DNA of 64,000 nt. Source: Pseudoflavonifractor capillosus (GTDB lineage Bacteria; Bacillota; Clostridia; Oscillospirales; Oscillospiraceae). Position 1 is the stretch's first letter, and each line of letters starts with the position of its first letter. Below, one piece after another: positions 37,982-64,000 of the stretch. The notes beneath the pieces are model-generated. The model was not told the origin of the DNA. It saw nothing but the letters and a program-made list of their open reading frames with translations, and did no database searches. The DNA lies in the NCBI RefSeq assembly GCF_016899775.1, contig NZ_JACJJE010000007.1, forward strand, positions 23,256-87,255. The letters run 5' to 3'. The position numbers and the translations under genes are program-made.

Positions 37982-37982
37982 C

Positions 37983-38755: not shown

Positions 38756-39128
38756 CCTTTAGTCTCCTCAAAATCTCCTTATCCGCAGGGCAAAATGCGT
38801 ACTGATCAATTTCATCCACCGTAATCCAACGGATGTCATTATGCTCCAATTTCTGGGGGGTACCCTCACGGATGGTCGAATGAAACAGCGTCAGGTGAAC
38901 CGTTAGATCGGGGTATTCGTGAACCACATCCATGAACACCTCGCCCACATCCAGCGTGACTGCCAATTCTTCCTGACATTCCCGAATGAGCGCCTGCTCT
39001 TTTGTTTCTCCGGGCTCCACCTTACCTCCAACGAACTCCCAGAGAAGACCACGGGCCTTGTGTGCCGGGCGCTGGCAAATCATAAACTTGTCCTGATCCC
39101 AGATGAGGGCTGCTACTACTTCAGTCAT
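38745..39128 (-). CDS. NUDIX hydrolase (MutT-like (d)NTP pyrophosphohydrolase)
   Basis: Nudix box GGKVEPGETKEQALIRECQEELAV. Confidence 0.7.
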   Translation of the reverse strand: MTEVVAALIWDQDKFMICQRPAHKARGLLWEFVGGKVEPGETKEQALIRECQEELAVTLDVGEVFMDVVHEYPDLTVHLTLFHSTIREGTPQKLEHNDIRWITVDEIDQYAFCPADKEILRRLKDAY

Positions 39129-42284: not shown

Positions 42285-42391
42285 ATCAGTCACTCTTTCT
42301 ACGTGGTTATAGATAAAAAAATAGTGGCATATTTTGTATCCAGTATACCTGTATTTCCAGCATTCTACAAGCATCAATCACTCAGCACACC

Positions 42392-47900: not shown

Positions 47901-47957
47901 GAGCTGAAACTGAGCAGAAAGAGGTGCATACCAGGTATTCCGATCATTATTCTTCAT
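44874..47957 (-). CDS. DinG/Rad3-like SF2 helicase with Fe-S-type cysteine cluster (1027 aa)
   Basis: Walker A VGMVGAGKST and Walker B DLVVFDESD. Four cysteines (C...C...CPYFEQC) lie between them, as in XPD/DinG helicases. Overlaps the upstream gene by 11 nt. Confidence 0.5.
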   Translation of the reverse strand: MKNNDRNTWYAPLSAQFQLIEEAMPLSRFAAIEAVLYLLSLTAPDADPTKAYLLFTQYQLIGTTQCSDIEHTLQQARSKLGYYRSQKYWQDDLREYRKKRYDAVRAFSIQQVDEKRSFSKAIGPYPYPYEERAKEWVRFWPERVEDLKAPTYAESGTYRYMYSFESGDSETVRVKLNCAGVDTASSMPVEKNCRPPITISIKELLSTAEKMAEICPGDPCFTILKTNILKEVNGFTVQPCSELTIREVVNMVGMVGAGKSTLIKVLSFWFHQHGLRMAVVVDTVAETLSLQKYLSSLGVAASHLIGRSERMKYINQVSQPDEICLSASYSQYLTPACLIDGMDEQHDAAIVFGKEPCYSLKKGNQHYLCPYFEQCSGTKMLRDCYTASVVVTTVAGFAASRVGTARETFLELAMRDFDLVVFDESDRVQKTLDHFFMPETSFNNYIRECAEDCSAYMKLSSKHREENLAAQRYDEMQRQSVTVLSCIVKSLHHELGAWRKITYGDPFSALTLLDDLYQTETEFKIPHAVYQAIYNLIDMQDEERIRQSTLWAVLDSSCKSTDEFFFDRMYQLWLTELGETFPRPEKNKARKIQDARIKLILRLIYFDHFIRGLSDAYEASHETSYGQNELFGFLQTRFRQQQHFLPSALCGNLFGLKKTDEEDIILFRQFAFGRSLMKDLPYLRTDQHGNPAGPHVILLSGSSWAEGSYEYHVNRPVNYILEADAEKRVFLEKTRFFESGFLERISGAGDDQRVAQLRAATQKAVDLIISEYKRKAGKILLVVNSYAQALEVQQTLETALRKANCSARTCRMIADAINAPSGEDTVRRGEVSRFAQLNADILIAPAMAIERGHNIVDEYGHSALSAVFFMVRPMAVPDDIQQKGSKLNGLVESHCKREPQESLFAYNARIRQFAARQWNKMSKTKAFGIAELSEDERKDVVATLFVLILQIFGRLARVTDVSRPAPHVYFIDGAFRRRPEKAEDFDCLSELGQYLEELMTQKGSAEIAKTLYAPFYQAYRKDISYEQ

Positions 47958-49074
47958 GGCACGCAGCCTCCTTTTTACTGATTTCAGACTTTAAGGCCCT
48001 CAATGTCACACACATTACATTTTCCTGGTTCTTCAAAGCGCGGTTGATAATCGTAGTGTAGTTTTTCTGATTTGCCGTGTATTCATTGGGAATTACATAA
48101 TATCCTCTCGCATAATCCCCTGTAGGGAAGCCATTGTCGTTCAGAATTTTTGTTCGCAGCGCAATTGGATTTCGATACGCTTTCGCATCAATTTCCCACA
48201 CCTCTCCATCAGAAAATTGAATCTCTACATCATATCGATCCAGTTGAGGCCACAGCACCCAGTGAATGTTTTTCTTTTGGCAGAACGCAACGATATCAAG
48301 TTCCAGTTTGCCAGGCGCTGCAAAGTACCGCATGATACCTTTTTTCAAACGATAAAGCCCGCCACCAGAAGCATCCAGTTTCATATCATCGGTCAGATTT
48401 GGGATTGTGTCCACACAGTGAGATGAATGACAGATATATCCGTACTTCCCATATGTCATGGTCCATCCACAGCAGGGACATCGATAACTGTCCTCCCAAA
48501 TTTCTTCATACGCAAATTGAAATGCCTCCATAGCAGCTGGATCATCAGCCAATTCCAATGACATGGCTCGTCGCTCATCAATAGATATGATTGGATGCTC
48601 AATGATGTATCTTCTGATCCGACAGTAAATTTCTTGCCCTAAAACAATGATTTTCTCATAAAGGACACGTTCGTCGGTTCCGTCCATGATATCATTGTCC
48701 TGGGATTCCAAATACTCATAGCATTCAGAACTGGGACTATACAAATTTCCACTCCGTTGATACGCTAACGCCCCATAACTATAAAATGGCTCTTCTTTTA
48801 AGTTTAAAGAATCGATTCCATTGGGATCCCATTTATCAAACCATTCAAAAACAGGCTTGGTAATAAAAAATTTCAGGAACGCAGCCTCGTCCGCATATTG
48901 TGTTATATCCTGCATGCCACCAATTTGATGGCTTGCAGCTAAAAACATATTTATGCCATGCTGCAATGCTTTACTGTAAGGATACCGTGTAGGTTCTTTT
49001 TGTAAAAGCTGCTCCTTCTCCACTAATCCTTTCGCAATTAGCGCAAATGTTTTCCGCAAAAATATCGCATCCAT
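47947..49074 (-). CDS. Zn-finger + PD-(D/E)xK (REase-fold) nuclease candidate
   Basis: CPCCGWTMTYGKYGYICHSSHC zinc ribbon. C-terminal DIVAF...DVEIQFSDGEVWEIDAKAY (D..E.K pattern). RBS GGAGG before MDAIF at 49074. Confidence 0.45.
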   Translation of the reverse strand: MDAIFLRKTFALIAKGLVEKEQLLQKEPTRYPYSKALQHGINMFLAASHQIGGMQDITQYADEAAFLKFFITKPVFEWFDKWDPNGIDSLNLKEEPFYSYGALAYQRSGNLYSPSSECYEYLESQDNDIMDGTDERVLYEKIIVLGQEIYCRIRRYIIEHPIISIDERRAMSLELADDPAAMEAFQFAYEEIWEDSYRCPCCGWTMTYGKYGYICHSSHCVDTIPNLTDDMKLDASGGGLYRLKKGIMRYFAAPGKLELDIVAFCQKKNIHWVLWPQLDRYDVEIQFSDGEVWEIDAKAYRNPIALRTKILNDNGFPTGDYARGYYVIPNEYTANQKNYTTIINRALKNQENVMCVTLRALKSEISKKEAACHEE

Positions 49075-49443
49075 ACAGAGGCCTCCTGCCTTAGACAAAA
49101 ATAAAACGGTTCTCTTGTGCGTACAAGAGAACCGTCGATAGTTACAATAACTCAGCCTAAGCATATATATCACCCTAAGGTAATGACATGCAGTAGGCTC
49201 TACCATCTTTACTTTTCTCGTGTACGCTCTTAGTATATATACAATATCCAGGTGCTGTCAAGAGCAAATTTTTATTGGTTGAAACCATGGGCTGCATATC
49301 CTGACCAATACTTATGCCGGATTACCTCACCTTACAAATTAAGAACTTTTTATAATATTGCAGACACATCCCGACGATGTACAATAAAAGCGTAGGATAA
49401 AAACACTTGCAAATCTGATAAGTAGAAACTGAGTGATGCAGAT

Positions 49444-50118
49444 ATGCGTACCTTTACAACAGGTGACGAGACCATCTCTATCTTTCCGTGCAGCGAATCA
49501 GAGTCTCCGGTTATCTACCTCAACACCTTCCACGATGAAAGCCAAAAGGTATATGAGACTGCACAGGCTACTGGTTGCCCACCGTTTACCTTGGTAGCCA
49601 TCAGTAATCTGGACTGGAACCAAGACATGGCTCCGTGGGACAGTCCGGCGGCCTTCAAGAAGGGAGAACCCTTTACCGGCGGGGCAGGTGACTACCTGCG
49701 GCTGCTGGTGGAGGAGATCATACCCAGGGCAGAAAAAGAGCTGGTCGGGCCTCCGGCGTGGCGGGGAATCGCCGGGTACTCTCTGGCGGGGTTATTCGCC
49801 CTGTACACCATCTACCAGACAGATGTGTTCTCGCGGGTGGGGTGCATGTCCGGCTCCTTGTGGTTTCCTGGTTTCAAAGAGTACATCTTCTCCCACGAGC
49901 CGAAGCGCCGGCCAGACTGCATCTATTTCTCTCTGGGGGACAAGGAGGCCAAGACACGCAATCCGGTTCTGAAAACAGTTCAGGAGAATACAGAGGAAAT
50001 CCAGGCTTTTTACCAGGGCGAGGGCATCGACACAGTGTTCCAACTGAATTCTGGAAACCATTTTGTCCAGGGGATCGAACGGACCGTTGCGGGCATTCAG
50101 TGGCTGTTGAGCAAATAG
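49444..50118 (+). CDS. alpha/beta-hydrolase esterase (putative-esterase family, PF00756-like)
   Basis: GxSxG nucleophile elbow GYSLAG; 224 aa. Confidence 0.65.
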   Translation: MRTFTTGDETISIFPCSESESPVIYLNTFHDESQKVYETAQATGCPPFTLVAISNLDWNQDMAPWDSPAAFKKGEPFTGGAGDYLRLLVEEIIPRAEKELVGPPAWRGIAGYSLAGLFALYTIYQTDVFSRVGCMSGSLWFPGFKEYIFSHEPKRRPDCIYFSLGDKEAKTRNPVLKTVQENTEEIQAFYQGEGIDTVFQLNSGNHFVQGIERTVAGIQWLLSK

Positions 50119-50133
50119 GGGCTGGCCTCCCGG

Positions 50134-50478
50134 CCCTTATTCTTTGTTTCGGCGTGTGAAAAACTGATACGCCCGCCGCACAGAAAAGACTTGCACACTC
50201 GCTTTGCCAGAGGTACAATACCCCAAACCCAGAGTTACGAAAAAACGCTTCCCGGCCGGGGCAGGCAGACACCTGCCGCCCCTGGTCAGGAAGCGTTTTT
50301 GACCCCATATTTGACCACAGTCAGGACTGGAATACCCGGAAACAGTGGATTTAAGAGCGTCAAAAAATATTCAATACCGAGCGGAAAATGCTGGAAAGCA
50401 CTACAAATTATCACAAAAAATTTGGTTCAAGCGTTTGGGATCACGGGGCCGAGCGTTCGAATCGCTCCACTCGGACCA
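50134..50478 (+). ncRNA. unclassified ncRNA candidate with tRNA-like 3' terminus, copy C (diverged, contiguous)
   Basis: 5' end cccttattctttgtttcggcg matches copies A and B. The 3' end is tttgggatcacggggcc-GAGCG-TTCGAAT-CGCTC-CACTCGG-A-CCA, followed by a terminator. Confidence 0.35.
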
Positions 50479-51045: not shown

Positions 51046-53565
51046 ATGGCCATTATCAAATGCAAAATGTGCGGCGGGGACCTGGAGATCACCGAGGGCG
51101 TGACTGTGGCCGAGTGCGAGTACTGCGGCACCAAGCAGACAGTTCCCAGTGCGGACAGTGAGAAAAAAACTAGCCTGTTCCTGCGGGCCAACAAACTGCG
51201 GTTCGACTGTGACTTTGACCGGGCGGCAAACATTTACGACAGCATTATCACCGACTTTCCGGCGGAGCCGGAGGCCTACTGGGGCCTTCTGCTGTGCAAA
51301 TATGGCATTGAGTACGTAGACGACCCGGCCACCGGGAAGAAGGTGCCCACCTGCCACCGCTCCTCCTATGAGTCCGTCCTGGAGGACGAGAACCTGGAGA
51401 AGGTGATGGAGTACGCCGACGCGGTGGCCCGGCGGGTGTATCGGGACGAGGCCAAGGCCATCGAGGACATCCGAAAGGGGATACTGGAGGTCTCCGGCAA
51501 GGAACCGCCCTACGACATCTTCATCTGTTACAAGGAGACCGACGAGAGCGGGGAGCGCACGGTGGACAGTGTGCTGGCCCAGGACGTGTATGACGCCCTG
51601 ACAGAGAAGGGCTACCGGGTGTTTTTCTCCCGCATTACTTTGGAGGACAAGCTGGGCACTCAGTACGAGCCCTACATCTTTGCCGCCCTGAACAGCGCGA
51701 AAATCATGCTGGTGTTCGGCACCGACTATGAGTATTTCAACGCCGTGTGGGTGAAGAACGAGTGGAGCCGCTTTCTGAAGCTGATGGCCCAGGACAAGAG
51801 CAAGCATCTGATCCCCTGCTACAAGGATGTGGACGCCTACGACATGCCCAAGGAGTTCCAGAAGCTCCAGGGCCAGGACATGGGCAAGGTGGGAGCCGTG
51901 CAGGACCTCCTCCGGGGCATCGACAAGCTGCTGGGGAAAGGCACAGCGGCGCAGGCTGCTGCTCCAGCTCAAGCCGCAGGCGGCCCCACGGTGGATAGTT
52001 TGCTGAAGCGGGCACAAATGTTCCTGGAGGATGGAAACTGGGACAGCGCCAACGAGTACTTCGACAAGGTGCTGGACATCGCCCCTGAGAGCGCCGAGGC
52101 CTATGTGGGCAAGTTCTGTGCGGAACGAAAGTACCATCAAATTTCCGAGGTTGCTGAAGATAGTGATGCTTTTTCCGGACAGGTATCCACACTGTGGGAA
52201 CGAGCGTTGGAGTTTGCCACACCAGAGCTATATACAGTACTGAAAGAATATCAGGCTGCATCAGAAAAGATAACACATCGGAAAGCACAGCAGGAGAATG
52301 CTGCCAGACAGGAAACCGAAAAGAGATTGGCAGCAATCCGACCTTATGCACAAGGCCTTCTCGCCGCTTCAGAGGCTTATGTTACTGTAGGTTTGGGTTC
52401 CGATGGCAGGGTGGCCGCAGTAGGCCCTAATACTTACGGACAATGCAATGTCTCGTACTGGAAGGATATTATAGCGGTCTGCACTGGAGGCCGCCATACG
52501 GTAGGCCTGAGAGCAGACGGCACGGTGGTTGCGGTAGGTAAAGACGGACAGTGCAGAGTTTCGGACTGGAGGGATATTGTAGCTATTTGCGCCGGGAATG
52601 ATCACACAATAGGTCTGAGGTCAGATGGTACAGTGGTTGCGGTTGGAACTAGCTTGCGGGATCAGTGTAATGTCTCTGGCTGGAAAAATATTGTGGCTAT
52701 CTGCGCCGGAGATGAGCATACGGTAGGTCTAAGAGGGGACGGCACGGTAGTCGCAGTGGGCAATAATAATTGCGGACAGTGTAATGTCTCAAGCTGGAAA
52801 GATATTACAGCTATTTGCGCTAGAGATTCCCACACAATAGGTCTGAGAGCAGACGGAACAGTGGTTGCAGTGGGAAGTAATGTTCCCGGGAGCTACAACG
52901 TCCCGGCCTGGACAGATATTGTAATGGTCTGCACTGGAAACTCTCATACAGTAGGACTGAAGGCAGACGGAACAGTAGTCGCAGCTGGCAATAATCATTG
53001 CGGACAGTGCAATGTCTCTGACTGGAAAAATATTGTAGCTATCTGCGCCGGAGGCTTCCACACGATAGGCCTGCAAGCGGACGGCAAGGTAGTCGTGGCG
53101 GGCAATAATAGCCAGGGCGAATGTAATGTCTCGGACTGGTGTAATATTGTAGCGATCTGCGCCGGAGGCTTCCACACGATAGGCCTGCAAGCGGACGGCA
53201 AGGTAGTCGCGGTGGGCAGTAATAGCTATGGCGAATGTAATGTATCGGATTGGCAGTTGTTTAGCAGCGTCGAAACATTGAAGGCAGAGCGGACAGCTCT
53301 CCGCCAGAGGAGAGAAGAAGCCCGTCAAAAGGATGAGCAGCACCGCAAAGAAAAGCAGCGCTGGGAAGAGGAACAGCGCCGTCATGAAGAGGAGCGCCGC
53401 CGCAGAGAAGAGGAACAGCGCACCCAGCACCGAAATGCGCTGGAGGATGAGCGCACCCGGCTGCAAGCGGAATTGCCCACAATCAAGGGCCTGTTCTCCG
53501 GCGGCAAGCGCAGGCAGGTGGAGGCCCGGCTGGCGGAGATTGAGGCGGAACTGAAAAAGCTGTAA
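51046..53565 (+). CDS. Zn-ribbon / TPR-like / TIR-domain / TPR / RCC1-like beta-propeller-repeat / coiled-coil protein, paralog A
   Basis: MAIIKCKMCGG...CEYCGT zinc ribbon. TIR-like DIFICYKETDESGERTVDSV...KIMLVFGTDYEYFNAVWVKNEWSRF. About 11 repeats of GxxHTxGLxxDGTVVAVGxNxxGQCNVSxWKxI. C-terminal LKGLFSGGKRRQVEARLAEIEAELKKL. RBS GGAGG before ATG 51046. Confidence 0.7.
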   Translation: MAIIKCKMCGGDLEITEGVTVAECEYCGTKQTVPSADSEKKTSLFLRANKLRFDCDFDRAANIYDSIITDFPAEPEAYWGLLLCKYGIEYVDDPATGKKVPTCHRSSYESVLEDENLEKVMEYADAVARRVYRDEAKAIEDIRKGILEVSGKEPPYDIFICYKETDESGERTVDSVLAQDVYDALTEKGYRVFFSRITLEDKLGTQYEPYIFAALNSAKIMLVFGTDYEYFNAVWVKNEWSRFLKLMAQDKSKHLIPCYKDVDAYDMPKEFQKLQGQDMGKVGAVQDLLRGIDKLLGKGTAAQAAAPAQAAGGPTVDSLLKRAQMFLEDGNWDSANEYFDKVLDIAPESAEAYVGKFCAERKYHQISEVAEDSDAFSGQVSTLWERALEFATPELYTVLKEYQAASEKITHRKAQQENAARQETEKRLAAIRPYAQGLLAASEAYVTVGLGSDGRVAAVGPNTYGQCNVSYWKDIIAVCTGGRHTVGLRADGTVVAVGKDGQCRVSDWRDIVAICAGNDHTIGLRSDGTVVAVGTSLRDQCNVSGWKNIVAICAGDEHTVGLRGDGTVVAVGNNNCGQCNVSSWKDITAICARDSHTIGLRADGTVVAVGSNVPGSYNVPAWTDIVMVCTGNSHTVGLKADGTVVAAGNNHCGQCNVSDWKNIVAICAGGFHTIGLQADGKVVVAGNNSQGECNVSDWCNIVAICAGGFHTIGLQADGKVVAVGSNSYGECNVSDWQLFSSVETLKAERTALRQRREEARQKDEQHRKEKQRWEEEQRRHEEERRRREEEQRTQHRNALEDERTRLQAELPTIKGLFSGGKRRQVEARLAEIEAELKKL

Positions 53566-53580
53566 GAGAGGGAGTATACT

Positions 53581-56226
53581 ATGGCAATCATCAAATGTAA
53601 AATGTGCGGCGGCGATTTGAACGTCACCGAGGGTATGACCGTAGCCGAGTGCGAATACTGCGGCACCAAGCAGACGGTCCCCAGTGTGGACAGTGAGAAG
53701 AAACTGACCCTGTTCAGCCGGGCCAACCGGCTGAGGCTGGCCGGTGAGTTCGACAAGGCTGCCGGGGTCTATGAGAGCATTGTGGCGGAGTTTCCGGAGG
53801 AGGCCGAGGCATACTGGGGCCTGGTGCTTTGTAAATACGGCATTGAATATGTGGACGACCCGACCACCGGAAAGAAAGTGCCTACCTGCCACCGCTCTTC
53901 CTTTAACAGTATCCTCAAGGACAGCGACTTTGAGCAGGCCTGCGAAAACGCGGACACAGTGGCCCGGCGGGTCTACCGAGACGAGGCCAAGGCCATCGAG
54001 GACATCCGCAAGGGGATTTTGGAGGTCTCCGGCAAGGAGCCGCCCTACGACATCTTCATCTGCTACAAGGAGACGGATGAAAATGGGGAGCGCACGGTGG
54101 ACAGCGTGCTGGCCCAGGATGTGTACGACGCCCTGACCGAGAAGGGCTACCGGGTGTTTTTCTCCCGGATCACCCTGGAGGACAAGCTGGGCGCCGAGTA
54201 CGAGCCGTACATCTTCGCCGCCCTGAACAGCGCGAAAATTATGTTGGTATTCGGCACGGACTACGAGTATTTCAACGCCGTGTGGGTGAAAAACGAGTGG
54301 AGCCGGTACTTAAAGCTGATGGCCCAGGACAAGAGCAAGCATCTGATCCCCTGCTACAGGGATGTGGATGCCTATGACATGCCAGAGGAGTTCCAGAAGC
54401 TCCAGGGCCAGGATATGGGCAAGGTGGGGGCTGTCCAGGATCTGCTGCGGGGTATCGAAAAACTGCTGGGGAAGGACGCAGCTGCTCAAACGGATTCAAC
54501 CTCTCCGGCCCAGGCAGCAGGGGGACCCACAGTGGAGTCCCTGATGAAGCGGGGACAGCTCTTCCTGGAGAGCGGGGATTGGGACAGCGCCAATGAGTAC
54601 TTCGATAAGGTGCTGGACATTGCCCCCGAGAGCGCCGAGGCCTATGTGGGCAAGTACTGCGCGGAGCGGAAGTACCGGGATTTCTCCTTCATGCGCCTGG
54701 ACCATGGTGACCAGCTGTACGCGAAAGGAATCCTGCACCTGTGGAATCTGACACAAAAAAAGGAGTTCGACCGGGCAAAAACATTTTACCAAGATGTAAC
54801 CGGCGCGGATCAGACCGGAGCGCAGCAGTTTTTGGGTATGCTGCTGGGAATGGAAAAGCTGGACATAAGTGCCGTGATCCCGGATCCCACTGCAACTTCC
54901 CGGAATTTCACGCTGGCCCTGCGCTTCGCCTCGCCGGAGCTGCGGACCCAACTGGAGGAGGCCCGGGACGCGTTCCGGCAGAACCGGGAGAAGCACATCC
55001 AGGAAGTGGAGCGGGAAATCGCGGATGCCGAGCAAGCCGAGAGAGACGCCGCAGAGGAACAAAAGCGGGCCAAAGAGCAGAAAAAAATTCAAGAAGCGGA
55101 GGAGAAAAAGGCCCACGCGGAGCTGCTTCGCACCCGGCGGGAGCTGGCCCGCAGGTTCAGTAAGCGCATCGCCGCGGGCGCGGGTTTTGTTGTGGCCTTA
55201 AAGCTGGACGGTACCCCCTTAGTGGCCGGGGCCAGCCGGTTTGGGGCGGCCGATTTGTCCGGATGGAAGGATCTGACGGCGGTTTCCGCCGGGCTTTACC
55301 ACACGGTGGGCCTGCGCTCAAACGGTACGGTGGTGGCCACAAAGTACACCAAAAAAGAGAAGTATAACCCCTCCAATGACTCCTTCTGCCAGGTGTCCCA
55401 TTGGAGGAATATCGTGGACATCTCCGCCGCAACTACCTCCACCGTGGGCATCAAGGCGGACGGAACGGCGGTCTGGACCGGGCAGGACCTCCCCTATGCG
55501 GGGGACCTGCCAGATGCGGGGAATTGGAAGGACTTTGTGGACTTTGCGGCCACACGCATCCCTACAATTGATGACAAGACCGGCACGCTGATCGGGCTGA
55601 AATCCGACGGAACGGTTGTGGACAGCGGCTATTTTTCCCAAAAGTATCCCGTCATGTGGAACGCGGGGCTGACGCTGGCCTTCAAAAACGTGGCCATGTC
55701 GGCCAGCACCTATCATGCGGTCTTTTTAAAGGAAAATGGTCTGGTCCTTCCCATCGGTGACTCGAGCAGCGCCGCATGTCAGGTCAGGGACTGGCAGGAT
55801 ATTGTGCAGGTCTGTGCCACAGGGGATAGTTCTGTTACCTATGGCCTGAAAGCAGATGGAACGATGGTGGCGACGAAAGATCCCAGTCCGTACGTACATG
55901 AGGAACGCGAGGTACTCAAGTGGAAGGATATTATTGCCTTCTCTGCGAATGGCGGTTGGGTCGTAGGCCTGAAGTCGGATGGCACCCTGGTCTCCACCAG
56001 TGAACAGCTGCAGGAGATGATCGGCTCTTGGAAACTGTTTGACAGTCTGGATACGATAGAGCAGGAATTGGCAGAGGTCCAGGCCAAGCGCAAGGCCGCT
56101 CTGGAAAAGGAGCGGGACGACCTTCAGGCGGAGCTGCCCAACCTGAAGGGGTTCTTCTCCGGCGGCAAACGCCGGGAGATGGAGGCTAGGATTGCAGAGA
56201 TTGAGGAAGAACTGAAGAAGCTGTAA
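53581..56226 (+). CDS. Zn-ribbon / TIR-domain / TPR / beta-propeller-repeat / coiled-coil protein, paralog B
   Basis: N-terminal 300 aa ~88% identical to paralog A. Divergent repeat region. Same C-terminal LKGFFSGGKRR...ELKKL motif. Confidence 0.7.
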   Translation: MAIIKCKMCGGDLNVTEGMTVAECEYCGTKQTVPSVDSEKKLTLFSRANRLRLAGEFDKAAGVYESIVAEFPEEAEAYWGLVLCKYGIEYVDDPTTGKKVPTCHRSSFNSILKDSDFEQACENADTVARRVYRDEAKAIEDIRKGILEVSGKEPPYDIFICYKETDENGERTVDSVLAQDVYDALTEKGYRVFFSRITLEDKLGAEYEPYIFAALNSAKIMLVFGTDYEYFNAVWVKNEWSRYLKLMAQDKSKHLIPCYRDVDAYDMPEEFQKLQGQDMGKVGAVQDLLRGIEKLLGKDAAAQTDSTSPAQAAGGPTVESLMKRGQLFLESGDWDSANEYFDKVLDIAPESAEAYVGKYCAERKYRDFSFMRLDHGDQLYAKGILHLWNLTQKKEFDRAKTFYQDVTGADQTGAQQFLGMLLGMEKLDISAVIPDPTATSRNFTLALRFASPELRTQLEEARDAFRQNREKHIQEVEREIADAEQAERDAAEEQKRAKEQKKIQEAEEKKAHAELLRTRRELARRFSKRIAAGAGFVVALKLDGTPLVAGASRFGAADLSGWKDLTAVSAGLYHTVGLRSNGTVVATKYTKKEKYNPSNDSFCQVSHWRNIVDISAATTSTVGIKADGTAVWTGQDLPYAGDLPDAGNWKDFVDFAATRIPTIDDKTGTLIGLKSDGTVVDSGYFSQKYPVMWNAGLTLAFKNVAMSASTYHAVFLKENGLVLPIGDSSSAACQVRDWQDIVQVCATGDSSVTYGLKADGTMVATKDPSPYVHEEREVLKWKDIIAFSANGGWVVGLKSDGTLVSTSEQLQEMIGSWKLFDSLDTIEQELAEVQAKRKAALEKERDDLQAELPNLKGFFSGGKRREMEARIAEIEEELKKL

Positions 56227-56256
56227 CGATCCTTACAATAAAGGAGAGCGCATAAA

Positions 56257-58809
56257 ATGGCGATTATCAAGTGCAAAATGTGTGGCGGCGATTTGAACGT
56301 CACCGAGGGCGTGACCGTGGCCGAGTGCGAATACTGCGGCACGAAGCAGACGGTCCCCAATGTAGACAATGAGAAGAAGCTAACCCTGTTCAGCCGGGCC
56401 AACCGGCTGCGGCTGGCCTGCGAGTTTGATAAGGCTGCCGGGGTGTATGAGAACATTGTGGCGGAGTTCCCCGAGGAGGCGGAGGCCTATTGGGGCCTGG
56501 TGCTGTGTAAATACGGCGTTGAATATGTGGATGACCCGGCCACCGGGAAGAAAGTGCCCACCTGTCACCGCTCCTCCTTTGACAGCATTTTGGAGGACAG
56601 CGACTTTGAGCAGGCCTGCGAGAACGCCGACGCGGTGGCCCGGCGGGTATACCGGGACGAGGCCAAGGCCATCGAGGACATCCGCAAGGGGATTTTGGAG
56701 GTCTCCGGCAAGGAGCCGCCCTATGACATTTTCATCTGCTACAAGGAGACCGACGACAGCGGTGAACGCACCGTGGACAGCGTGCTGGCCCAGGACGTGT
56801 ACGACGCCCTCACCAAAAAGGGCTACCGGGTGTTCTTCTCCCGAATCACCCTGGAGGACAAGCTGGGCACCGAGTATGAGCCCTACATCTTCGCGGCGCT
56901 GAACAGCGCGAAAATCATGCTGGTGTTCGGCACCGACTATGAGTATTTCAACGCCGTGTGGGTCAAGAACGAGTGGAGCCGTTTTCTGAAACTGATGGCT
57001 CAGGACAAGAGCAAGCACCTGATTCCCTGCTACAGGAATGTGGACGCCTACGACATGCCCAAGGAGTTCCAGAAGCTCCAGGGCCAGGACATGGGCAAAG
57101 TGGGGGCCGTTCAGGACCTGCTCCGGGGCATCGACAAGCTGTTGGGGAAGGGGACAGCGGCGCAGGCCGCCGCTCCGGCTCAAGCCGCAGGCGGCCCCAC
57201 GGTGGAATCTCTGCTGAAACGTGGGCAGATGTTTCTGGAAGATGAGGACTGGAAGAGTGCCGGGGAGTATTTTGACAAAGTGCTGGATCTGGTACCTGAA
57301 TGTGCGGAAGCTTATTTGGGAAAATTCCTCGCGTTTTATGGACTTGTATCGCTGACAGGTATGAGAAACAAAATATATCCTCTGGACAGCAGCAAGGAAT
57401 TTCGCCGTGCGGAACAATTTGCGGATGCGGAGTTGGCAAAGGATCTGCAGAAAGTCAAGGAAGGCAATGAGCTGAGGTACCAGCGGTTCCGACTTTGGGA
57501 TGTACTGAAAAAACATTGTAAAAATAAAGAAGATGATGAGAGAGCCCGTGAGGAAGAAGTAAGGCGGCGCGAAGAAGAGGCCCGACAGCAGGAGGAGAGC
57601 CGCAAGGCAAGGGTGCGCCTGAAGCCCATCCGGGAAAAACTCCGCATAGCGGCACCGTGGCTTGTTTCTGGACTGAACTTGGTAGTGGGTCTGAACACGG
57701 ATGGCACAGCGAAAATAGTTGGCTATTATGACTGGGGCAGAGGCAAAGACAAAGGGGAAAAAGTCGGAAATTGGAAACACATCGTCGCCGTTGCGGCAGG
57801 TACGAATCATGTCGTGGGCCTGCGGGCGGACGGGACTGTAGTGGTCGATTTCTACGGAGATTACGGGGATGACAAAGGACAGTGGAAGGTGAGCGAATGG
57901 ACGGATATTGCAGCCATTGCCGCCGTTGATAATTTGACGGTTGGATTGAAGTCAGATGGAAGCGTCGTCACTGCGGGGACACTTGGCAACGACAAATCAG
58001 TGGATGTATCCGACTGGCGGGATATTGCGGCTGTTACGATGTCCGCCTTTTCCTTGATTGGACTTCGCAAGGATGGTACCGTCATAAGTGGACATTCATA
58101 TGATGATATGTCTGCCTTGGAAAATATTGTTGACATTGCTGGCGGATACGGCCTGCGGGACGACGGTACGGTGATTTCTATATGGGATAGGAAGACGGTT
58201 TCGCTTTTTGGGTGGACGGATATTGTGGCAATCGCAGCTGGTACATACCATGTTGTAGGGCTGAAAGCGAATGGGACTGTCGTGGCGACTATGGATGACA
58301 ATCAATGGTCGCATTCGGAGGGGCAGACCCAGGTATCCGAGTGGACGGGTATTGTGGCCATTGCTGCCGGATATACCCATACGGTCGGTTTGAGAGCGGA
58401 CGGGACCGTGGTGTTCGCAGGTAAGCGAGGGTCCTTAAGCAGGGTGGAAGAGTGGAAATTGTTTGACAGCGCAGATACGGCAATCGAGCACAAGCAGGAG
58501 CGGGAAGAACAGATGCGCCGGGCGATTGAGGAAGAGCATCAAGCCGCCGAGAAAAAGGCCGAGGAAATGAGGGAAGAACAGCGGCGCAGAGAAGAAGAAA
58601 AGAAACAAAATCGGGAACGAATCCAGAGAATTGATGCGCTGACAAAGGAGCGTTCGACTTTGTGGGCAGAGTACAATAAATTAGGCCTGTTTGGGAATAG
58701 ACAGAGAAAAAAGGAAATCAAAGTGCGCTGCGATGAAATCTGTCTTGAGCTGGAGGCATTGGAAAAGGAACGGAAGGAAGCGTTCAAAAAGGAACAGCAT
58801 GGGAAATGA
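56257..58809 (+). CDS. Zn-ribbon / TIR-domain / TPR / beta-propeller-repeat / coiled-coil protein, paralog C
   Basis: N-terminal 300 aa ~88% identical to A and B. Distinct repeat region and a charged coiled-coil C-terminus. Confidence 0.7.
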   Translation: MAIIKCKMCGGDLNVTEGVTVAECEYCGTKQTVPNVDNEKKLTLFSRANRLRLACEFDKAAGVYENIVAEFPEEAEAYWGLVLCKYGVEYVDDPATGKKVPTCHRSSFDSILEDSDFEQACENADAVARRVYRDEAKAIEDIRKGILEVSGKEPPYDIFICYKETDDSGERTVDSVLAQDVYDALTKKGYRVFFSRITLEDKLGTEYEPYIFAALNSAKIMLVFGTDYEYFNAVWVKNEWSRFLKLMAQDKSKHLIPCYRNVDAYDMPKEFQKLQGQDMGKVGAVQDLLRGIDKLLGKGTAAQAAAPAQAAGGPTVESLLKRGQMFLEDEDWKSAGEYFDKVLDLVPECAEAYLGKFLAFYGLVSLTGMRNKIYPLDSSKEFRRAEQFADAELAKDLQKVKEGNELRYQRFRLWDVLKKHCKNKEDDERAREEEVRRREEEARQQEESRKARVRLKPIREKLRIAAPWLVSGLNLVVGLNTDGTAKIVGYYDWGRGKDKGEKVGNWKHIVAVAAGTNHVVGLRADGTVVVDFYGDYGDDKGQWKVSEWTDIAAIAAVDNLTVGLKSDGSVVTAGTLGNDKSVDVSDWRDIAAVTMSAFSLIGLRKDGTVISGHSYDDMSALENIVDIAGGYGLRDDGTVISIWDRKTVSLFGWTDIVAIAAGTYHVVGLKANGTVVATMDDNQWSHSEGQTQVSEWTGIVAIAAGYTHTVGLRADGTVVFAGKRGSLSRVEEWKLFDSADTAIEHKQEREEQMRRAIEEEHQAAEKKAEEMREEQRRREEEKKQNRERIQRIDALTKERSTLWAEYNKLGLFGNRQRKKEIKVRCDEICLELEALEKERKEAFKKEQHGK

Positions 58810-59224
58810 AATGTTGAGCGGCCTGATTGGTGCACTAATTGGTGGCTGTTGCTCTGTTTTGGGCGGCATCATTGCGGTGAAACTTGAATATCAAGAACAA
58901 CGCAAGCATGAATGGAGAAAGAAGCAATATGATCTATTCTGTGTAATTGTGGACTTTCTGAATAAACTGATCGAGTTTGTCGGCAGCGAAAAGACCACAC
59001 TTAGTGAAGTGGATGACGTTCACCCCAAGTCCGCTGATGAACTATGGGATGAAATTGTGCGGTTAAAGGGAAGAATCATTCCCTTGGTCAGCATCCTGTT
59101 TGACAAGCAAATGGAAAAGCAAATTATTATATTTTATGACGAAATTTCTCAGGGTGGAACAGCAGTCACAGAAGAAATCGAAGCCTTTATCAGCAACAGC
59201 AAAGAAAAATATTTTAGACATTAG
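58799..59224 (+). CDS. small single-pass membrane protein (about 141 aa)
   Basis: ATG overlaps the stop of paralog C by 11 nt. N-terminal TM helix LSGLIGALIGGCCSVLGGIIAV. Confidence 0.4.
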   Translation: MGNEMLSGLIGALIGGCCSVLGGIIAVKLEYQEQRKHEWRKKQYDLFCVIVDFLNKLIEFVGSEKTTLSEVDDVHPKSADELWDEIVRLKGRIIPLVSILFDKQMEKQIIIFYDEISQGGTAVTEEIEAFISNSKEKYFRH

Positions 59225-59243
59225 AAAGAAGTAGAGGTTTGCC

Positions 59244-61253
59244 ATGTCCAAATTTGTAATCGAATGTCCCAACTGTGGGAAATACGCGGAGGCCAAGACG
59301 GGCTTCTTTGCGCGAAAGAAGATCGACTGTTCCTGTGGGTACACCATCGACGTGCGCACCGACAAGATGACCGCCCGGAAGTGCCCCCACTGCGGAAACG
59401 AGGTCATCTTTGACCAGTCCAAGGGGGAGAAGGCCAAGTGTCCGGTGTGCCACGAGCCCATCAACACCCAGGCGGAACAGAACAAAGTGGAGGAGTTCTC
59501 CTGCGCCCAGTGCGGCGTGCGGCTCCAGGCCAGCAAGAGCGCCCGTACATACACCTGCCCCGTCTGCGACTGTGTGAACGACGTGCAGGAGCGCATCATG
59601 GCTGAGAAGGTCAAAAAGGAGGGCCTGGCCAGCATCATCAAGTACGAGGGGGACAATGAGACCCTGGTGTGGAAGCACCCCATCGAGGACTTCAACATGG
59701 GCTCTCAGCTCATCGTCCATGAGAGCCAGGAGGCCATCTTCTTCCGGGACGGCCAGGCCCTGGACCTGTTCGGGCCGGGCCGGTACACCCTGGAGACCCA
59801 GCAGCTTCCCATTCTGGAGAAGCTCTATGAGCTGCCCACAGACGCGGAGGGCACCTTCCACTCCGAGGTCTACTTCATCAACAAGACCGTTCAGATGTCC
59901 ATCAAATGGGGGACCCCGGACAAGGTGCGCTTCATCGACCCCCTCACCAGCACGCCGCTGGAAATTGGCGCCTCCGGCGAGCTGAATTTACAGGTGCAGG
60001 ACGCCCGGAAACTGCTGGTCAAGCTGGTGGGCACCCAGAGCGGCATCGCCTGGGGGGACCAGGAGGGCTTCACCAAGTCGGTCCAGAGCTCCTTCCGGCC
60101 TCTCATCGTCAACACGGTCAAGACCAGCCTCCCCGCCGTCATCAAGGCCCAGCAGATCGACCTGCTGGAGATTGACGAGCGGGTGGACGAGATCTCCGCC
60201 GCCCTCCATGAGAAGCTGCTGCCCGGCTTTGAGGAGTACGGCCTGACCATCCCCCAGTTCTATGTGACCCATGTGGTGCTGCCCGAGGACGACCCCAACT
60301 TCAAGCGCATCCGGGAACTGCACACGGTCATGCTCCAGACCCGTGTCTATCAGGCGGAGGCCACCGTCAAGACGGCCCAGGCCGAGAGCGAGGCCGCCTA
60401 CCGTACCGCCCAGGAGCGGAGCAAGGCGGTTATCGCCGCCGCCCAGCGTGAGGCGGAGCTGGAGCGCCAGACCACCGAGACGGAAGTGAAAAAGCGCGAG
60501 GCGGAGCGGACGGTCATCCAGGCCCAGGCGGAGGCACAGGCCGCCCGGATGGCCGGACTGACCGAGGCGGAGGTCATGCGGGCCAAGGGCTACACCGAGA
60601 AGGACGTGCTCCAGGCGGAGGTCCAGAAGGCCTACGCCGCCGGACTGGGCCAGATGGGGTCCAACGGCGGAGGCGGCGGCGCGCTGGGCGATATCGCCGG
60701 GCTGGGCGTGACCCTGGGGGCCATGGGCGGCATCATGGGCATGACCAAGGAGGCGATGTCTCCCATGTTTGGCGGCCAGACCCAGGAACAGAGCGCTCCC
60801 ACGGTCCCGCCCGCACCCGCGGCGGGCGGCTGGGACTGTGCCTGCGGCCAGCGGGGCATCACCGGCAACTTCTGTCCCAACTGCGGCGCAAAGAAGCCCG
60901 CCCCGGCGGACGCCTGGGACTGCGCCTGCGGGCAGACGGGGATCACCAGCAAGTTCTGCCCCAACTGCGGCGCAAAGAGGCCCGCTCCGGCGGATACCTG
61001 GGACTGCGCCTGCGGCCAGAAGGGTCTGACCGGGAAGTTCTGCCCGGAGTGCGGGGCCAAGCGGCCCGAGCCCGTCCAGCCGGATACCTGGGACTGTGCC
61101 TGCGGCCAGAAGGGCATCACCGGGAAGTTCTGCCCGGAGTGCGGGACCAAGCGCCCTGATCCCGCCCAGCCGGATACCTGGGACTGTACCTGCGGCCAGA
61201 AGGGTATCACCGGAAAATTCTGCCCGGAGTGCGGAAAGAAGAGAGGCGATTAA
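59244..61253 (+). CDS. SPFH/band-7 (stomatin-prohibitin-like, COG4260-type) protein with three N-terminal and five C-terminal zinc ribbons
   Basis: N-terminal CPNCG.../CPHCG.../CPVCH.../CAQCG...CPVCD. SPFH-like core (WKHPIEDFNMGSQLIVHESQEAIFFRDGQ...). Flotillin-like Ala/Glu coiled coil. Gly-rich hydrophobic segment. Five WDCACGQKGITGKFCPECGAKRP repeats. Confidence 0.7.
   Translation: MSKFVIECPNCGKYAEAKTGFFARKKIDCSCGYTIDVRTDKMTARKCPHCGNEVIFDQSKGEKAKCPVCHEPINTQAEQNKVEEFSCAQCGVRLQASKSARTYTCPVCDCVNDVQERIMAEKVKKEGLASIIKYEGDNETLVWKHPIEDFNMGSQLIVHESQEAIFFRDGQALDLFGPGRYTLETQQLPILEKLYELPTDAEGTFHSEVYFINKTVQMSIKWGTPDKVRFIDPLTSTPLEIGASGELNLQVQDARKLLVKLVGTQSGIAWGDQEGFTKSVQSSFRPLIVNTVKTSLPAVIKAQQIDLLEIDERVDEISAALHEKLLPGFEEYGLTIPQFYVTHVVLPEDDPNFKRIRELHTVMLQTRVYQAEATVKTAQAESEAAYRTAQERSKAVIAAAQREAELERQTTETEVKKREAERTVIQAQAEAQAARMAGLTEAEVMRAKGYTEKDVLQAEVQKAYAAGLGQMGSNGGGGGALGDIAGLGVTLGAMGGIMGMTKEAMSPMFGGQTQEQSAPTVPPAPAAGGWDCACGQRGITGNFCPNCGAKKPAPADAWDCACGQTGITSKFCPNCGAKRPAPADTWDCACGQKGLTGKFCPECGAKRPEPVQPDTWDCACGQKGITGKFCPECGTKRPDPAQPDTWDCTCGQKGITGKFCPECGKKRGD
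60831..61250 (+). repeat. five tandem ~84-90-bp coding repeats (zinc-ribbon units) inside the SPFH gene
   Basis: tgggactg(t/c)gcctgcggccagaagggcatcaccgggaagttctgcccggagtgcgg... repeated with minor variation. Confidence 0.6.
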
Positions 61254-61255
61254 AG

Positions 61256-63157
61256 ATGGCGGCGTTGCAATGTGAGATCTGCGGCGGAAAGCTGATTGGG
61301 AAGCCGGGAGGCGTGTTCGAGTGCGACTCCTGCGGCATGGAGTATTCCACCGAGTGGGCCAAGGCGAAAATCCAGGAGATCCGGGGCACCGTCCAGGTGG
61401 AGGGCACCGTGGAGGTCACCGGCACCGTCAAGGTCGAGGGCGGGGCCAACAAGGAGAGCCTTTTGAAGCGGGGATACCTGCTGCTGGAGGACGGCGACTG
61501 GAAGGGGGCCGATGAGTGCTTTGATCAGGTGTTGAATATAGCCCCGGAGTGCGCTGAGGCATACGTGGGAAGATACTGCGCAAAGTGCCGCTATAAGCGC
61601 ATTGCCGAAATGGCGGAAGATCCCCGAGGGTTTCAACGCGGCACAGCACTTCCAGGTATCCAGGATAATGTGAGTATTGACCCAATTCTGGATTATTTGA
61701 GCAACAACCAAAAAGGGAAAGCAATCTTGCAGTATCGTCAGCAAACAGGTGCTAGCCTGGCAGAAGCAAAAGCTGCTGTAGAAAAAATCGAATCGGTAAG
61801 TAGAGTTTCCGCAGGGACAAGTGATTTTGAAAAAGCATTGCGTTTTGCCTCGCCGGAGCTGCGTGCGCAGCTGGAGGGCTATCAGTCGGCTGCACTGCAG
61901 CAGACACAGAAAATACAGCGGCAGCGCGAGGAAGAGCGCCGTCAGGAGGAAGAGGCACGCCGTCAGGAGGAAGAGGCGCATCGCTTGCAGGCGGAGGAGG
62001 AAGCGCGCAGAGCGGAAGAACAACAGCGTCTTCTGGCGGAGCGCAGAGCGCTGATCCGCCCGGCAGCCTCCTGCATTTCCATAACGTACAGGAATGTGAT
62101 CGCGGTAAAGTCCGATGGTACGCTGCTATGGGCGGTAGAAGCCAGCTCTGACACTTCAGCCTGGAATCAGTATCGTGAGGCCGCACTGTCCTGGAAAAAC
62201 ATCTCGCAGGTGGTACTCGTTGGAAAGGGCAATACAAAGACTTTTGGTGTGATTGGGGTCCGTATGGACGGTTCCCTAGTATGGGCAGGGAAGAATCTGA
62301 GCTTTCTGGACGAGGATGTGTGGACCGATCTGACCGCTATGGTTTATACCGAGGTGGACAGAAGTCGCCGCGGTTATCACGACTATCACGATGTATTTGT
62401 GGGGCTCAAGAGAGATGGCCACATAATCCTGCACGTCACCGATGAAGACAAACTCGACTGGGAAATAGACAAGCTGAGAGAATGGGATAACCTGACAAAA
62501 ATAATCGGCGGGAAAAATTACATTGCCGGGCTGAAGTCGGATGGTACGGTAGTTGCCGAGGGACAATGGGAATTCACGCAGCTGTATCAGGCGGAAAGGT
62601 GGACCGGAATTGTAGATATTGCCGCTTGCGGAGAGGACATCATCGGCCTGAAAGAAGATGGAATCGTTGTTGTAACCGGGAAGACGTCCAGCGATCAGAA
62701 ACGGTATTCTGATTGGACAGAGATTGCCGCCTTGGCTTCCAGCGGATCAGATTCCATCAGTATAAAATTCGACGGCACAGTCATGGCTGATGGGCTTGGC
62801 AGTAAGAAATCAAAGGAACAGTTGTCGGCCTGGACGGATATTGTTGCAGTATTTGGAGACTGGACTTTCGTGGGCGTAAAAGCGGACGGTATGGTGGTCA
62901 CCACGAGCGACAAGTACGATGTGTCCGGCTGGAAGCTCTTCGACCGCATTGAGACCGTGGAGCAGGAGCGAAAAGAGGCCCAGAGGCGGTTTGAAGAGGA
63001 GGAGGCCCAGGCCCGCGCCCAGCGCCGCGCCGCCCTGGAGGCGGAGCGCACCGCCTTGCAAAACGAGCTTGCCAACCTGAAGGGCCTGTTCTCCGGCAAG
63101 CGCCGGAAGGAGATCGAGGCCAGATTGGCTGCAATCGCGAAGGAACTGGAGGAATAA
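61256..63157 (+). CDS. Zn-ribbon / TPR-like / beta-propeller-repeat / coiled-coil protein, paralog D (no TIR; L7/L12-CTD-like segment)
   Basis: MAALQCEICGG...CDSCG zinc ribbon. TPR-like ADECFDQVLNIAPECAEAYVG. ILQYRQQTGASLAEAKAAVEKIE segment. Propeller-like repeats. C-terminal LKGLFSGKRRKEIEARLAAIAKELEE. Confidence 0.6.
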   Translation: MAALQCEICGGKLIGKPGGVFECDSCGMEYSTEWAKAKIQEIRGTVQVEGTVEVTGTVKVEGGANKESLLKRGYLLLEDGDWKGADECFDQVLNIAPECAEAYVGRYCAKCRYKRIAEMAEDPRGFQRGTALPGIQDNVSIDPILDYLSNNQKGKAILQYRQQTGASLAEAKAAVEKIESVSRVSAGTSDFEKALRFASPELRAQLEGYQSAALQQTQKIQRQREEERRQEEEARRQEEEAHRLQAEEEARRAEEQQRLLAERRALIRPAASCISITYRNVIAVKSDGTLLWAVEASSDTSAWNQYREAALSWKNISQVVLVGKGNTKTFGVIGVRMDGSLVWAGKNLSFLDEDVWTDLTAMVYTEVDRSRRGYHDYHDVFVGLKRDGHIILHVTDEDKLDWEIDKLREWDNLTKIIGGKNYIAGLKSDGTVVAEGQWEFTQLYQAERWTGIVDIAACGEDIIGLKEDGIVVVTGKTSSDQKRYSDWTEIAALASSGSDSISIKFDGTVMADGLGSKKSKEQLSAWTDIVAVFGDWTFVGVKADGMVVTTSDKYDVSGWKLFDRIETVEQERKEAQRRFEEEEAQARAQRRAALEAERTALQNELANLKGLFSGKRRKEIEARLAAIAKELEE

Positions 63158-63160
63158 CAG

Positions 63161-63856
63161 ATGAAAAAGAACGCGATACGCTGGTGGGTCGTTCTGGGCG
63201 TGGTGCTGGTTGTCTACAACGTGCTGGCATTTGCCCTGCCCTTCCCGAAGACAGCAGTCTTTGCGGTGAGCTATCTCTTTACTATGATCGCCATTCTGGC
63301 ACAAATTTACGTCATCCGCACCGCTTTCTACCGGGGCGAGGGGGTCAAAAGCAAGTTCTATGGCTTCCCCATCGCCAAGCTCGGCGTGATTTACCTGGCC
63401 GTCCAGCTGATTGCGGGTCTGGTATTTATGGCGCTGGGGCTGATTGTTCCGGTCTGGCTGCCGCTGGCGCTGTACGTGGTGCTGCTGGGGATAGCGGCGG
63501 CAGGTTTTGTGGCCGCTGACGCGGTGCGGGATGAGGTGGTCCGGCAGGAGATCAAGCTGGAGAAGGACGTCTCCCGGATGCGGGAGTTCCAGGCCAAGGG
63601 GCGGGCCCTGGTCACGCTGAATCAGGTCTCTGAGGCGGCTCGCCCCCTGGAGAAGCTGGCGGAAAATCTTCGATTCAGCGACCCGGTGAGCAGTGAGGCG
63701 CTGACGGAGATCGAGGACCAACTGGCAGAGTGCCTCGCTCAGCTGCAGGAGGCGGTATCGGCCCAAAAGACAGAGCAGATCTTGTCCGTTTGCCAGGAGG
63801 CAGAGCGGATTTTGGCGGAGCGGAACCAGCTTTGTAAGTTGAGCAAGACCAAATAG
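63161..63856 (+). CDS. membrane protein (4 predicted TM helices + C-terminal coiled coil)
   Basis: 231 aa with hydrophobic segments at residues ~8-30, 35-55, 75-100 and 102-125. Starts 4 nt after the stop of paralog D. Confidence 0.5.
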   Translation: MKKNAIRWWVVLGVVLVVYNVLAFALPFPKTAVFAVSYLFTMIAILAQIYVIRTAFYRGEGVKSKFYGFPIAKLGVIYLAVQLIAGLVFMALGLIVPVWLPLALYVVLLGIAAAGFVAADAVRDEVVRQEIKLEKDVSRMREFQAKGRALVTLNQVSEAARPLEKLAENLRFSDPVSSEALTEIEDQLAECLAQLQEAVSAQKTEQILSVCQEAERILAERNQLCKLSKTK

Positions 63857-63921: not shown

Positions 63922-64000
63922 TCCAGTCTGTCAAAGAACTCCTGTTTTCAAGAGATGAAAACAGGGATTTTGTAAGAAAAAGGGAAAAGAAAAGTGAAGG

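Follow-up and report, generated by a model that had tools for sequence, protein, structure and literature searches.

Here we report a conserved gene module of gut and rumen Clostridia, one copy of which occupies positions 51046-63856 of a 64,000-nucleotide stretch of the Pseudoflavonifractor capillosus genome (contig NZ_JACJJE010000007.1; this whole stretch is referred to below as the window). The block encodes four paralogous proteins, P1 to P4, the first three of which carry a TIR domain within a 300-aa N-terminal module (N-module), together with an SPFH protein rich in zinc ribbons and a protein with four transmembrane (TM) helices, named here the 4-TM protein. The TIR family, the SPFH protein and the 4-TM protein are the three conserved components, and we class the block as TIR sensor-effector proteins that are in this case coupled to an SPFH scaffold. 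The function that we infer for it, at what we judge to be an even chance, is that of a sensor array in defence or conflict, which would sense phage, other mobile elements or competitors at the envelope or beneath it.

Conservation of the TIR-SPFH-4TM neighbourhood

One genome per species was scanned with the N-module of P2, and the best 79 loci among 461 confirmed matches were examined. They belong to Clostridia of the gut and rumen (Oscillospiraceae, Acutalibacteraceae, Ruminococcus, Lachnospiraceae, Blautia and Christensenellales), with an N-module identity of 68-78%. Clustering of all open reading frames (ORFs) in these loci gave only four recurring families, namely the TIR family itself (1-5 copies per locus), the SPFH zinc-ribbon protein, the 4-TM protein, and a ribbon-helix-helix (RHH) protein of ~80 aa, which stands at the operon start in 18 loci; the window has no RHH regulator gene. 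The SPFH gene is present in 49 of the 79 loci. Among the 29 loci with full 10-kb flanks, 25 have the SPFH gene and 21 the 4-TM gene. A reverse survey with the SPFH protein yielded 80 metagenome loci, where a TIR-family gene was found in all 23 cases with enough flank, and the 4-TM gene in 54 of the 59 cases with >2 kb downstream. The usual gene order, [RHH]-TIR(n)-SPFH-[P4-like]-4TM-TIR(n), is kept across family-level distances in both search directions, and the P4-like gene between the SPFH and 4-TM genes recurs with N-termini 53-68% identical in loci L004, L014, L040, L049 and L054. The linkage of TIR-propeller, SPFH and 4-TM genes that had been proposed in a preliminary description of the block is therefore strongly conserved, and the survey did not find the homologues to be isolated genes never linked to SPFH or defence genes.

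The same description had counted a small TM protein, encoded just upstream of the SPFH gene, as a member of the system, which the survey contradicts. This ORF has no match in Pfam, PADLOC or PHROG and no tblastn match in the 79 genome loci, and elsewhere, other strains of the same species included, small genes unrelated to it fill its slot. The small ORF is strain-specific and lies in a variable cargo slot; it is not a conserved component. In other species, accessory genes lie between the TIR-family and SPFH genes (L003 12722-13648, L014 12562-13395 and L020 7294-8283); they encode a SIR2_2/AbiH-like protein, a DUF2971 protein with weak PDC-S31 matches, and a P-loop ATPase with a weak LmuB match, and may be extra effectors.

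Operon organization and domains of P1-P4

All seven ORFs described previously are present at 51046-63856 on the plus strand, where they form one tightly packed operon; the tight packing holds, with measured intergenic gaps of 1-30 nt in place of the 4-30 nt given before. The components of the operon are as follows.

51046..53565 (+): P1, ORF of 839 aa; from the N to the C terminus a C4 zinc ribbon, helical/TPR-like segment, TIR_2 domain (aa 158-280), TPR, coiled coil, 8-blade RCC1-like propeller, coiled coil and KGLFSGGKRR tail; no TM helix
53581..56226 (+): P2, 881 aa; plan of P1, except that the propeller is divergent (6-7 blades) and that a further helical insert follows the second TPR
56257..58809 (+): P3, 850 aa; plan of P1 with a divergent 7-blade propeller and a degenerate tail (GLFGNRQRKKEI)
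~58811..59224 (+): small ORF, ~137 aa; single N-terminal hydrophobic helix
59244..61253 (+): SPFH/Band_7_1 protein, 669 aa; three N-terminal C4 zinc ribbons, SPFH domain (aa 149-349), Ala/Glu-rich coiled coil, Gly-rich linker, then five tandem C-terminal C4 zinc ribbons; no TM helix
61256..63157 (+): P4, TIR-less paralog of 633 aa; its own zinc ribbon, beta-rich linker, second TPR, coiled coil, divergent 7-blade propeller and KGLFSGKRR tail
63161..63856 (+): 4-TM protein, 231 aa; conserved motifs KFYGFPI, RYSDPVSS and LAERNRLCKLNK
63940..63966 (+): terminator-like hairpin closing the operon, a consensus scan match only

The proposed modular plan of the paralogs, consisting of zinc ribbon, TPR, TIR, RCC1-like propeller and coiled coil, holds, and Pfam bore out the domain calls. 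The TIR_2 profile (PF13676) matches P1-P3 at aa 158-280 with 43-44 bits against a cutoff of 28 (E ~4e-11; 3.8e-11 for P1), and TPR matches were obtained for all four proteins. RCC1_2 (cutoff 22 bits) matches P1 with 160 bits (4e-48), P3 with 47 bits (2e-12) and P2 with 26.6 bits (5e-6); P4 has seven GxKxDG blade motifs, though no RCC1_2 match. By motif count each paralog of the window has 6-8 blades, fewer than the 8-11 repeats first assigned to it. P4 indeed has no TIR domain, as was noted before, and it also lacks the first TPR/helical segment. The shared tail (LKGLFSGGKRR...EARLAEIE) is found in P1, P2 and P4, so the earlier claim stands for these three and fails for P3, where the motif is degenerate. 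A P-loop or STAND NTPase was likewise correctly reported as absent, with no such Pfam match in P1-P4 and no NTPase domain in any component. No TM helix was detected in P1-P4 (maximum KD19 hydrophobicity 1.14-1.45, with 1.14 for P1), and none of these four proteins has the ectodomain-TM-TIR layout of a Toll-like receptor.

Across their first 300 residues, P1-P3 share 85-93% amino-acid identity and only 69-74% identity at third codon positions, which indicates that they are old duplicates with strong purifying selection acting on the N-module. A search of the PDB with the N-module sequence returned only designed TPRs. P1-P3 also contain a segment that is near-invariant in the family, WGLVLCKYGIEYVDDPxTGKKVPTCHR (aa 80-105, e.g. 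window 53818-53895), which forms a beta-hairpin in the structure model described below; its invariant residues C84, C103 and H104 might be part of a second metal site.

TIR fold and candidate catalytic pair

An AlphaFold2 model of P2 aa 1-360 (pLDDT 76) shows, in order, the zinc ribbon, helical hairpins, the conserved beta-hairpin (aa 88-103), a long helix, a TIR core with beta-alpha alternation (aa 158-300), and the TPR. The specific top matches of this model in Foldseek are the TIR domains of flax L6, SPARTA TIR-APAZ, MAL and SARM1 (probability 0.98-1.0). The plain MAFFT alignment was ambiguous and misplaced the catalytic region, and profile-profile alignment was used instead. With hhalign, the family TIR aligns to a set of bacterial TIR domains reported as active (AbTir, BtpA and others; sequences from PMC9092222 Table S2) with 97% probability, and W235 and E239 of P2 fall on W204 and E208 of AbTir. 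The aligned E239 occupies the position of the Glu that is invariant across the active set, within the WxxxE pair on helix alphaC. The corresponding WVKNEW motif was found in 146 of 146 family representatives and is also invariant in 43 of 43 relatives; in addition, each of the nine relatives scanned with Pfam passed the TIR_2 profile. The assignment of the ~130-aa region as TIR, which had been offered as a likeness to be checked, is thus confirmed by Pfam, by the fold and by the alignment of the catalytic Glu; neither a non-TIR fold nor the loss of the Glu was seen.

Conserved front half and variable sensor half of the family

The N-module matches 4,099 clusters at 50% identity (E<=1e-30). Since the N-modules are mutually 60-88% identical, the diversity of the family sits in the C-terminal halves. 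These halves contain RCC1 propellers, DUF6273, BspA-type leucine-rich repeats (LRR_5), TPR-like 'YKDS' repeats or multi-TM tails, and further endings include a zinc ribbon (CQHCGGxFKGLFxKKCxxCGKxKDY) and the coiled-coil tail of the window type (LxNLKGLFSGKRRKEIE).

The main feature of the family, absent from the preliminary description, is a single-pass TM form with an external variable domain. Of 114 relatives in the loci, 54 have a single TM helix at about residue 530-680, as do 65 of 146 representatives (~45%). This helix is preceded by a K/R-rich stretch and followed by the variable domain (RCC1, DUF6273 or LRR_5; locus L041, for example, encodes a TIR-TM-LRR_5 protein). The positive-inside rule places the sensor domain outside the cell and the TIR domain, with the zinc ribbon, in the cytosol. 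The KGLF tail or the C-terminal zinc ribbon was counted in 33 TM-less proteins and in none of the TM-bearing ones. Because they are mutually exclusive with TM helices, these endings may serve as an alternative means of docking soluble members to a membrane platform. In the P. capillosus strains, every copy is soluble and tailed.

SPFH and 4-TM proteins

The SPFH protein matches Band_7_1 (PF13421) with 132 bits against a cutoff of 24 (E 2.5e-38) and PF01145 with 24.4 bits against 23.6. The eight zinc ribbons reported before were counted exactly, three N-terminal and five C-terminal, all of the C4 type, and the five C-terminal ones are encoded by 84-90-nt tandem DNA repeats at 60812-61249 (repeat family D7). 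By eye only, these SPFH repeats look similar to the zinc ribbon at the C terminus of TIR-family proteins (KG[IL][TF]xK[FK]C..CG). A PDB search with the SPFH sequence gave nothing. By family and architecture, the closest characterised relative is B. subtilis YdjI, a Band_7_1 protein with a C-terminal zinc ribbon that belongs to the envelope-stress operon pspA-ydjGHI; its membrane recruitment is brought about by YdjH and by YdjG, which has zinc ribbons at its N terminus, and YdjI organises PspA foci (PMC8581546, PMC11237479).

The 4-TM protein has a counterpart of 100% identity among the NCBI proteins of Pseudoflavonifractor capillosus and belongs to a family of about a thousand 90%-identity clusters. 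Its model (pLDDT 87.7) has four TM helices, the last of which runs on for ~55 residues into a cytosolic helical bundle. No family match was found in Pfam, PADLOC, NCBIfam or PHROG, and the fold matches are generic helical bundles only. The SPFH-NfeD operons (QmcA-YbbJ, YuaG-YuaF) similarly have an SPFH gene followed by a gene for a small multi-TM partner; however, the 4-TM protein of the window lacks an NfeD/OB-fold domain (no Pfam match, and an all-helical model with no beta-barrel), and the SPFH protein lacks a membrane anchor of its own.

Strain variation and genomic context

In other P. capillosus-like contigs the operon is found at 96-98% nucleotide identity. The propeller cassettes of P1, P3 and P4 are replaced between conserved ends in other contigs of the same species, that of P4 in strains L085 and L086. 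Two metagenome contigs that are otherwise 99.96% identical (L082, L083) lack window positions 16349-63014 (46.7 kb), that is, the adjoining defence island and nearly the whole block. They retain a truncated end of a family gene and the 4-TM gene, the lost DNA being replaced by a 2.4-kb segment with a Toprim/DUF3991 gene, and the right breakpoint falls within the end of P4 that codes for the tail. In L082-L084 an insertion sequence (DDE_Tnp_1) stands just downstream of the 4-TM gene. In L084 (1-10000) the paralogs appear as shorter ORFs of 607, 214, 661, 214 and 436 aa and P4 as 276 + 245 aa, reflecting either pseudogenisation or a metagenome assembly error.

The defence island next to the block, noted in the preliminary description, is genuine and extends over 28-49 kb of the window, with pPIWI-RE, McrBC-like and helicase genes. 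The region upstream of P1 contains the following features.

17967-19985 (+): MCRA-family (oleate hydratase-like) gene, 744 bits; at the left boundary of the region that varies between strains
20160-22944 (-) and 26224-27210 (+): two adjacent tyrosine integrase genes and a DUF6076 gene
28287-42377 (-): further run of defence-type genes, with an AAA_11/AAA_12 helicase with DUF2726, a McrBC-like pair (McrC-family protein and 1093-aa AAA_5 protein), a ResIII/SWI2-SNF2 helicase with a hint of an MTES_1575 restriction endonuclease, DUF6998, and a PLD-ResIII-DUF3427 helicase
42392-49206 (-): complete three-gene pPIWI-RE island, encoding a pPIWI_RE protein (X, MID, RNaseH), a pPIWI_RE_Z protein (1027 aa) and a pPIWI_RE-associated restriction endonuclease
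50114-50141: terminator-like hairpin ending the upstream esterase gene, a consensus match only

DUF6076 also lies directly upstream of the module in L168 and L169, beside a serine recombinase; its recurrence near the module there and in the window hints that the module is able to travel with integrase/DUF6076-type elements. The flanks of L168/L169 further contain AbiEii, Fic/VbhA and another TIR protein (CAP12-PCTIR), and those of L172/L173 contain two-component and transport genes, L172 being an example of a minimal RHH-TIR-SPFH-4TM module; L170 and L171 encode the same TIR-family protein (P0049) with differing upstream genes. In qualitative terms, then, the association with defence and mobile genes expected for homologues holds in the window and in some other genomes and is not universal, as other loci are set among housekeeping genes. 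A phage-borne origin of the module was considered and dropped, since tblastn searches of isolate phage and plasmid collections gave no match and IMG/VR gave a single match, at a contig end.

Between the esterase gene and P1, within a gap of 900 bp, lies a single-copy sequence that resembles a tRNA 3' end (window 50451-50478, plus strand), with a T-arm (GAGCG-TTCGAAT-CGCTC), an acceptor strand and ACCA. Neither ARAGORN nor Rfam detected a tRNA or any other RNA gene in the window, and this sequence may be what remains of an att site at the border of the defence island.

Comparison with known systems and proposed function

None of the seven proteins is matched by PADLOC (v2), scans with NCBIfam and PHROG gave nothing useful, and no description of a TIR-SPFH-4TM module was found in the literature searched, in agreement with the initial view of an undescribed system. 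Compared with known systems, the block passes tests at the level of domains only (TIR, catalytic Glu, Band_7_1 and RCC1). Its family has the TIR fold and the WxxxE pair in common with Thoeris ThsB, SPARTA TIR-APAZ, TIR-STING and the AbTir/BtpA NADases, and like these TIR defence proteins it combines TIR with a fused or paired sensor part and has defence-gene neighbours in some genomes. Unlike them, the block has no ThsA, Argonaute/APAZ, STING, CD-NTase or SAVED partner; its TIR domain lies inside a unique module of zinc ribbon, helical segment, TIR and TPR with SPFH and 4-TM proteins as obligate partners, and half of its family is transmembrane with an external sensor. For Thoeris, neither a ThsA-type SIR2/SLOG domain (Pfam) nor a PADLOC match was found in the block, and for CBASS and Pycsar there was no Pfam or PADLOC match to a CD-NTase or pyrimidine cyclase with its effector. 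With the NLR/Avs STAND sensors the family shares a constant effector module joined to diversified repeat sensors (TPR, beta-propeller) and an expansion of paralogs; however, the block is NTPase-free, so that oligomerisation would need coiled coils, the SPFH scaffold or the TIR domain itself.

In the mechanism that we propose, 1-5 TIR paralogs with a nearly invariant cytosolic front half and a hypervariable sensor back half would be held on a platform made by the other two components, a TM-less SPFH (Band_7_1) protein with zinc-ribbon arrays and a 4-TM protein with a cytosolic helical bundle. By analogy with the role of YdjH for YdjI, the 4-TM protein may anchor an oligomeric SPFH ring or cage at the inner face of the membrane. 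The TIR proteins would attach to it via the TM helix, the C-terminal tail or the zinc ribbon, and their sensor half would accordingly either be displayed outside after one TM helix or be cytosolic with a KGLF-basic tail or zinc-ribbon end, as in the window. Binding of a ligand by the sensor domain would cluster the TIR domains, and the clustered domains, which keep the WxxxE pair, could become active NAD+-cleaving or signal-making enzymes, with growth arrest or abortive infection as the outcome. A wider recognition repertoire would come from the arrays of paralogs and from the swapping of cassettes.

Several points weigh against a role in defence or against parts of this mechanism. The N-module is 68-90% identical across families of Clostridia, far above what is usual for defence genes; several loci are set among housekeeping genes; isolate phages and plasmids gave no match; and the defence-like genes inserted in other species match their families weakly (24-26 bits). 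The role of the tail is deduced solely from its mutual exclusion with TM helices, and the link of the module to phage or to a phenotype, as well as the interactions within the trio, are inferred. When 160 TIR domains were screened in vitro for NADase activity, no product was seen with that of E. eligens EUBELI_RS07950, an entry that records a direct assay, as distinct from Table S1-type rows, which are nearest-neighbour assignments (PMC9092222 Table S2). EUBELI_RS07950 is a genuine family member, with 42% identity to P2 across the entire N-module (E 4e-120), and the only one for which we found an assay in the literature; that assay was made on the isolated TIR domain. Higher-order assembly is required by many TIR enzymes, such as SPARTA and SARM1, and because of this requirement the negative result lowers the probability of catalysis and does not exclude it. 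For the TIR domains in the window, NADase activity is putative.

Alternative explanations

A bolder form of the sensor-array reading is bacterial signalling of the Toll-like-receptor type, in which hypervariable sensors, either external LRR, propeller or DUF6273 domains or soluble propellers docked by a tail, would pass ligand binding on to cytosolic TIR domains pre-assembled on a flotillin-like SPFH raft anchored by the 4-TM protein; we regard it as possible, though doubtful. In architecture only, about 45% of the family resembles animal Toll-like receptors, with a repeat ectodomain (LRR in L041, RCC1 or DUF6273 in others), one TM helix and a cytosolic TIR domain. In contrast to these receptors, however, the polarity is opposite (N terminus inside, C terminus outside), the LRR is BspA-type, and the four proteins of the window are TM-less; homology is implied for the TIR domain only.

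It appears unlikely that the block is a Clostridial equivalent of B. subtilis pspA-ydjGHI that serves in envelope stress or membrane homeostasis; this non-immune reading is kept alive by the fact that YdjI is the closest characterised SPFH relative. In such a module, the SPFH protein and its anchor would organise repair or signalling complexes, and the zinc-ribbon TIR proteins would be adaptors or sensors with a non-enzymatic TIR. Both systems have a TM-less Band_7_1 SPFH protein with C-terminal zinc ribbon(s), a membrane-protein gene and proteins that start with zinc ribbons, as YdjG does, and YdjI depends on membrane partners (PMC8581546, PMC11237479). The extracytoplasmic domains of many family members would suit wall sensing, and the loci among housekeeping genes, the strong conservation of the N-module and the inactivity of the homolog's isolated TIR domain in vitro point in the same direction. 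However, the block has no PspA domain by Pfam, and the neighbourhoods of the 79 loci show no conserved PspA, TPM (YdjH-like) or NTF2 (YdjG-like) protein. Its membrane partner is a novel 4-TM helical bundle without a Pfam match and not a TPM-domain protein, and the layout of YdjG (zinc ribbon, NTF2, TM) is also missing; its zinc-ribbon partners carry TIR and hypervariable sensors, and its SPFH protein has eight zinc ribbons. The presence or absence of the block between strains, the swapping of sensor cassettes, the >4,000 C-terminal variants, the invariant catalytic Glu and the defence-type genes inside or beside the module likewise argue against envelope maintenance.

Somewhat less probable still is cell-surface recognition or discrimination of kin and competitors, with external domains that bind other bacteria or host glycans, a TIR domain that turns contact into a decision on growth or behaviour, and soluble forms, as in the window, that are accessory or regulatory. 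Such a role would fit the ectodomain types, which are those of Firmicutes surface proteins, the extreme polymorphism in paralog arrays and the exchange of cassettes within a species. It is at odds with the finding that all copies of P. capillosus are soluble yet equally variable, with the lack of linked secretion, toxin or immunity genes, and with neighbours that fit anti-mobile-element functions and not contact-dependent systems. Finally, a decaying or selfish paralog array, free of any system-level function and adjacent to SPFH and 4-TM genes through shared mobility only, could account for the split paralogs of L084, for the strains that keep just a truncated gene end and the 4-TM gene, and for the insertion sequence downstream in three contigs, but is very improbable given seven intact ORFs spaced by 1-30 nt, strong purifying selection on the N-module despite saturating synonymous change, and a gene order kept over family-level distances in both search directions.

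Implications for the family

If the block is a sensor array in defence or conflict, the catalogue of TIR immunity would gain a sensor-effector module that is widespread in the dominant Clostridia of gut and rumen, with >4,000 clusters at 50% identity sharing the N-module. Bacterial roles of SPFH and flotillin-like scaffolds are still debated, and the TIR family would provide a concrete client for them. The sensor array would also provide bacterial proteins of the ectodomain-TM-TIR layout, so far linked to animal Toll-like receptors, and both the origin of TIR receptor signalling and raft-organised immune signalling would become testable in a simple system. Under the bolder, Toll-like form of this reading, the module would be a new, NTPase-free class of envelope-surveillance immunity and, to our knowledge, the first SPFH-dependent defence system. 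Genes of this family are abundant in human gut metagenomes, and their present annotation goes no further than hypothetical protein or TIR-domain protein.

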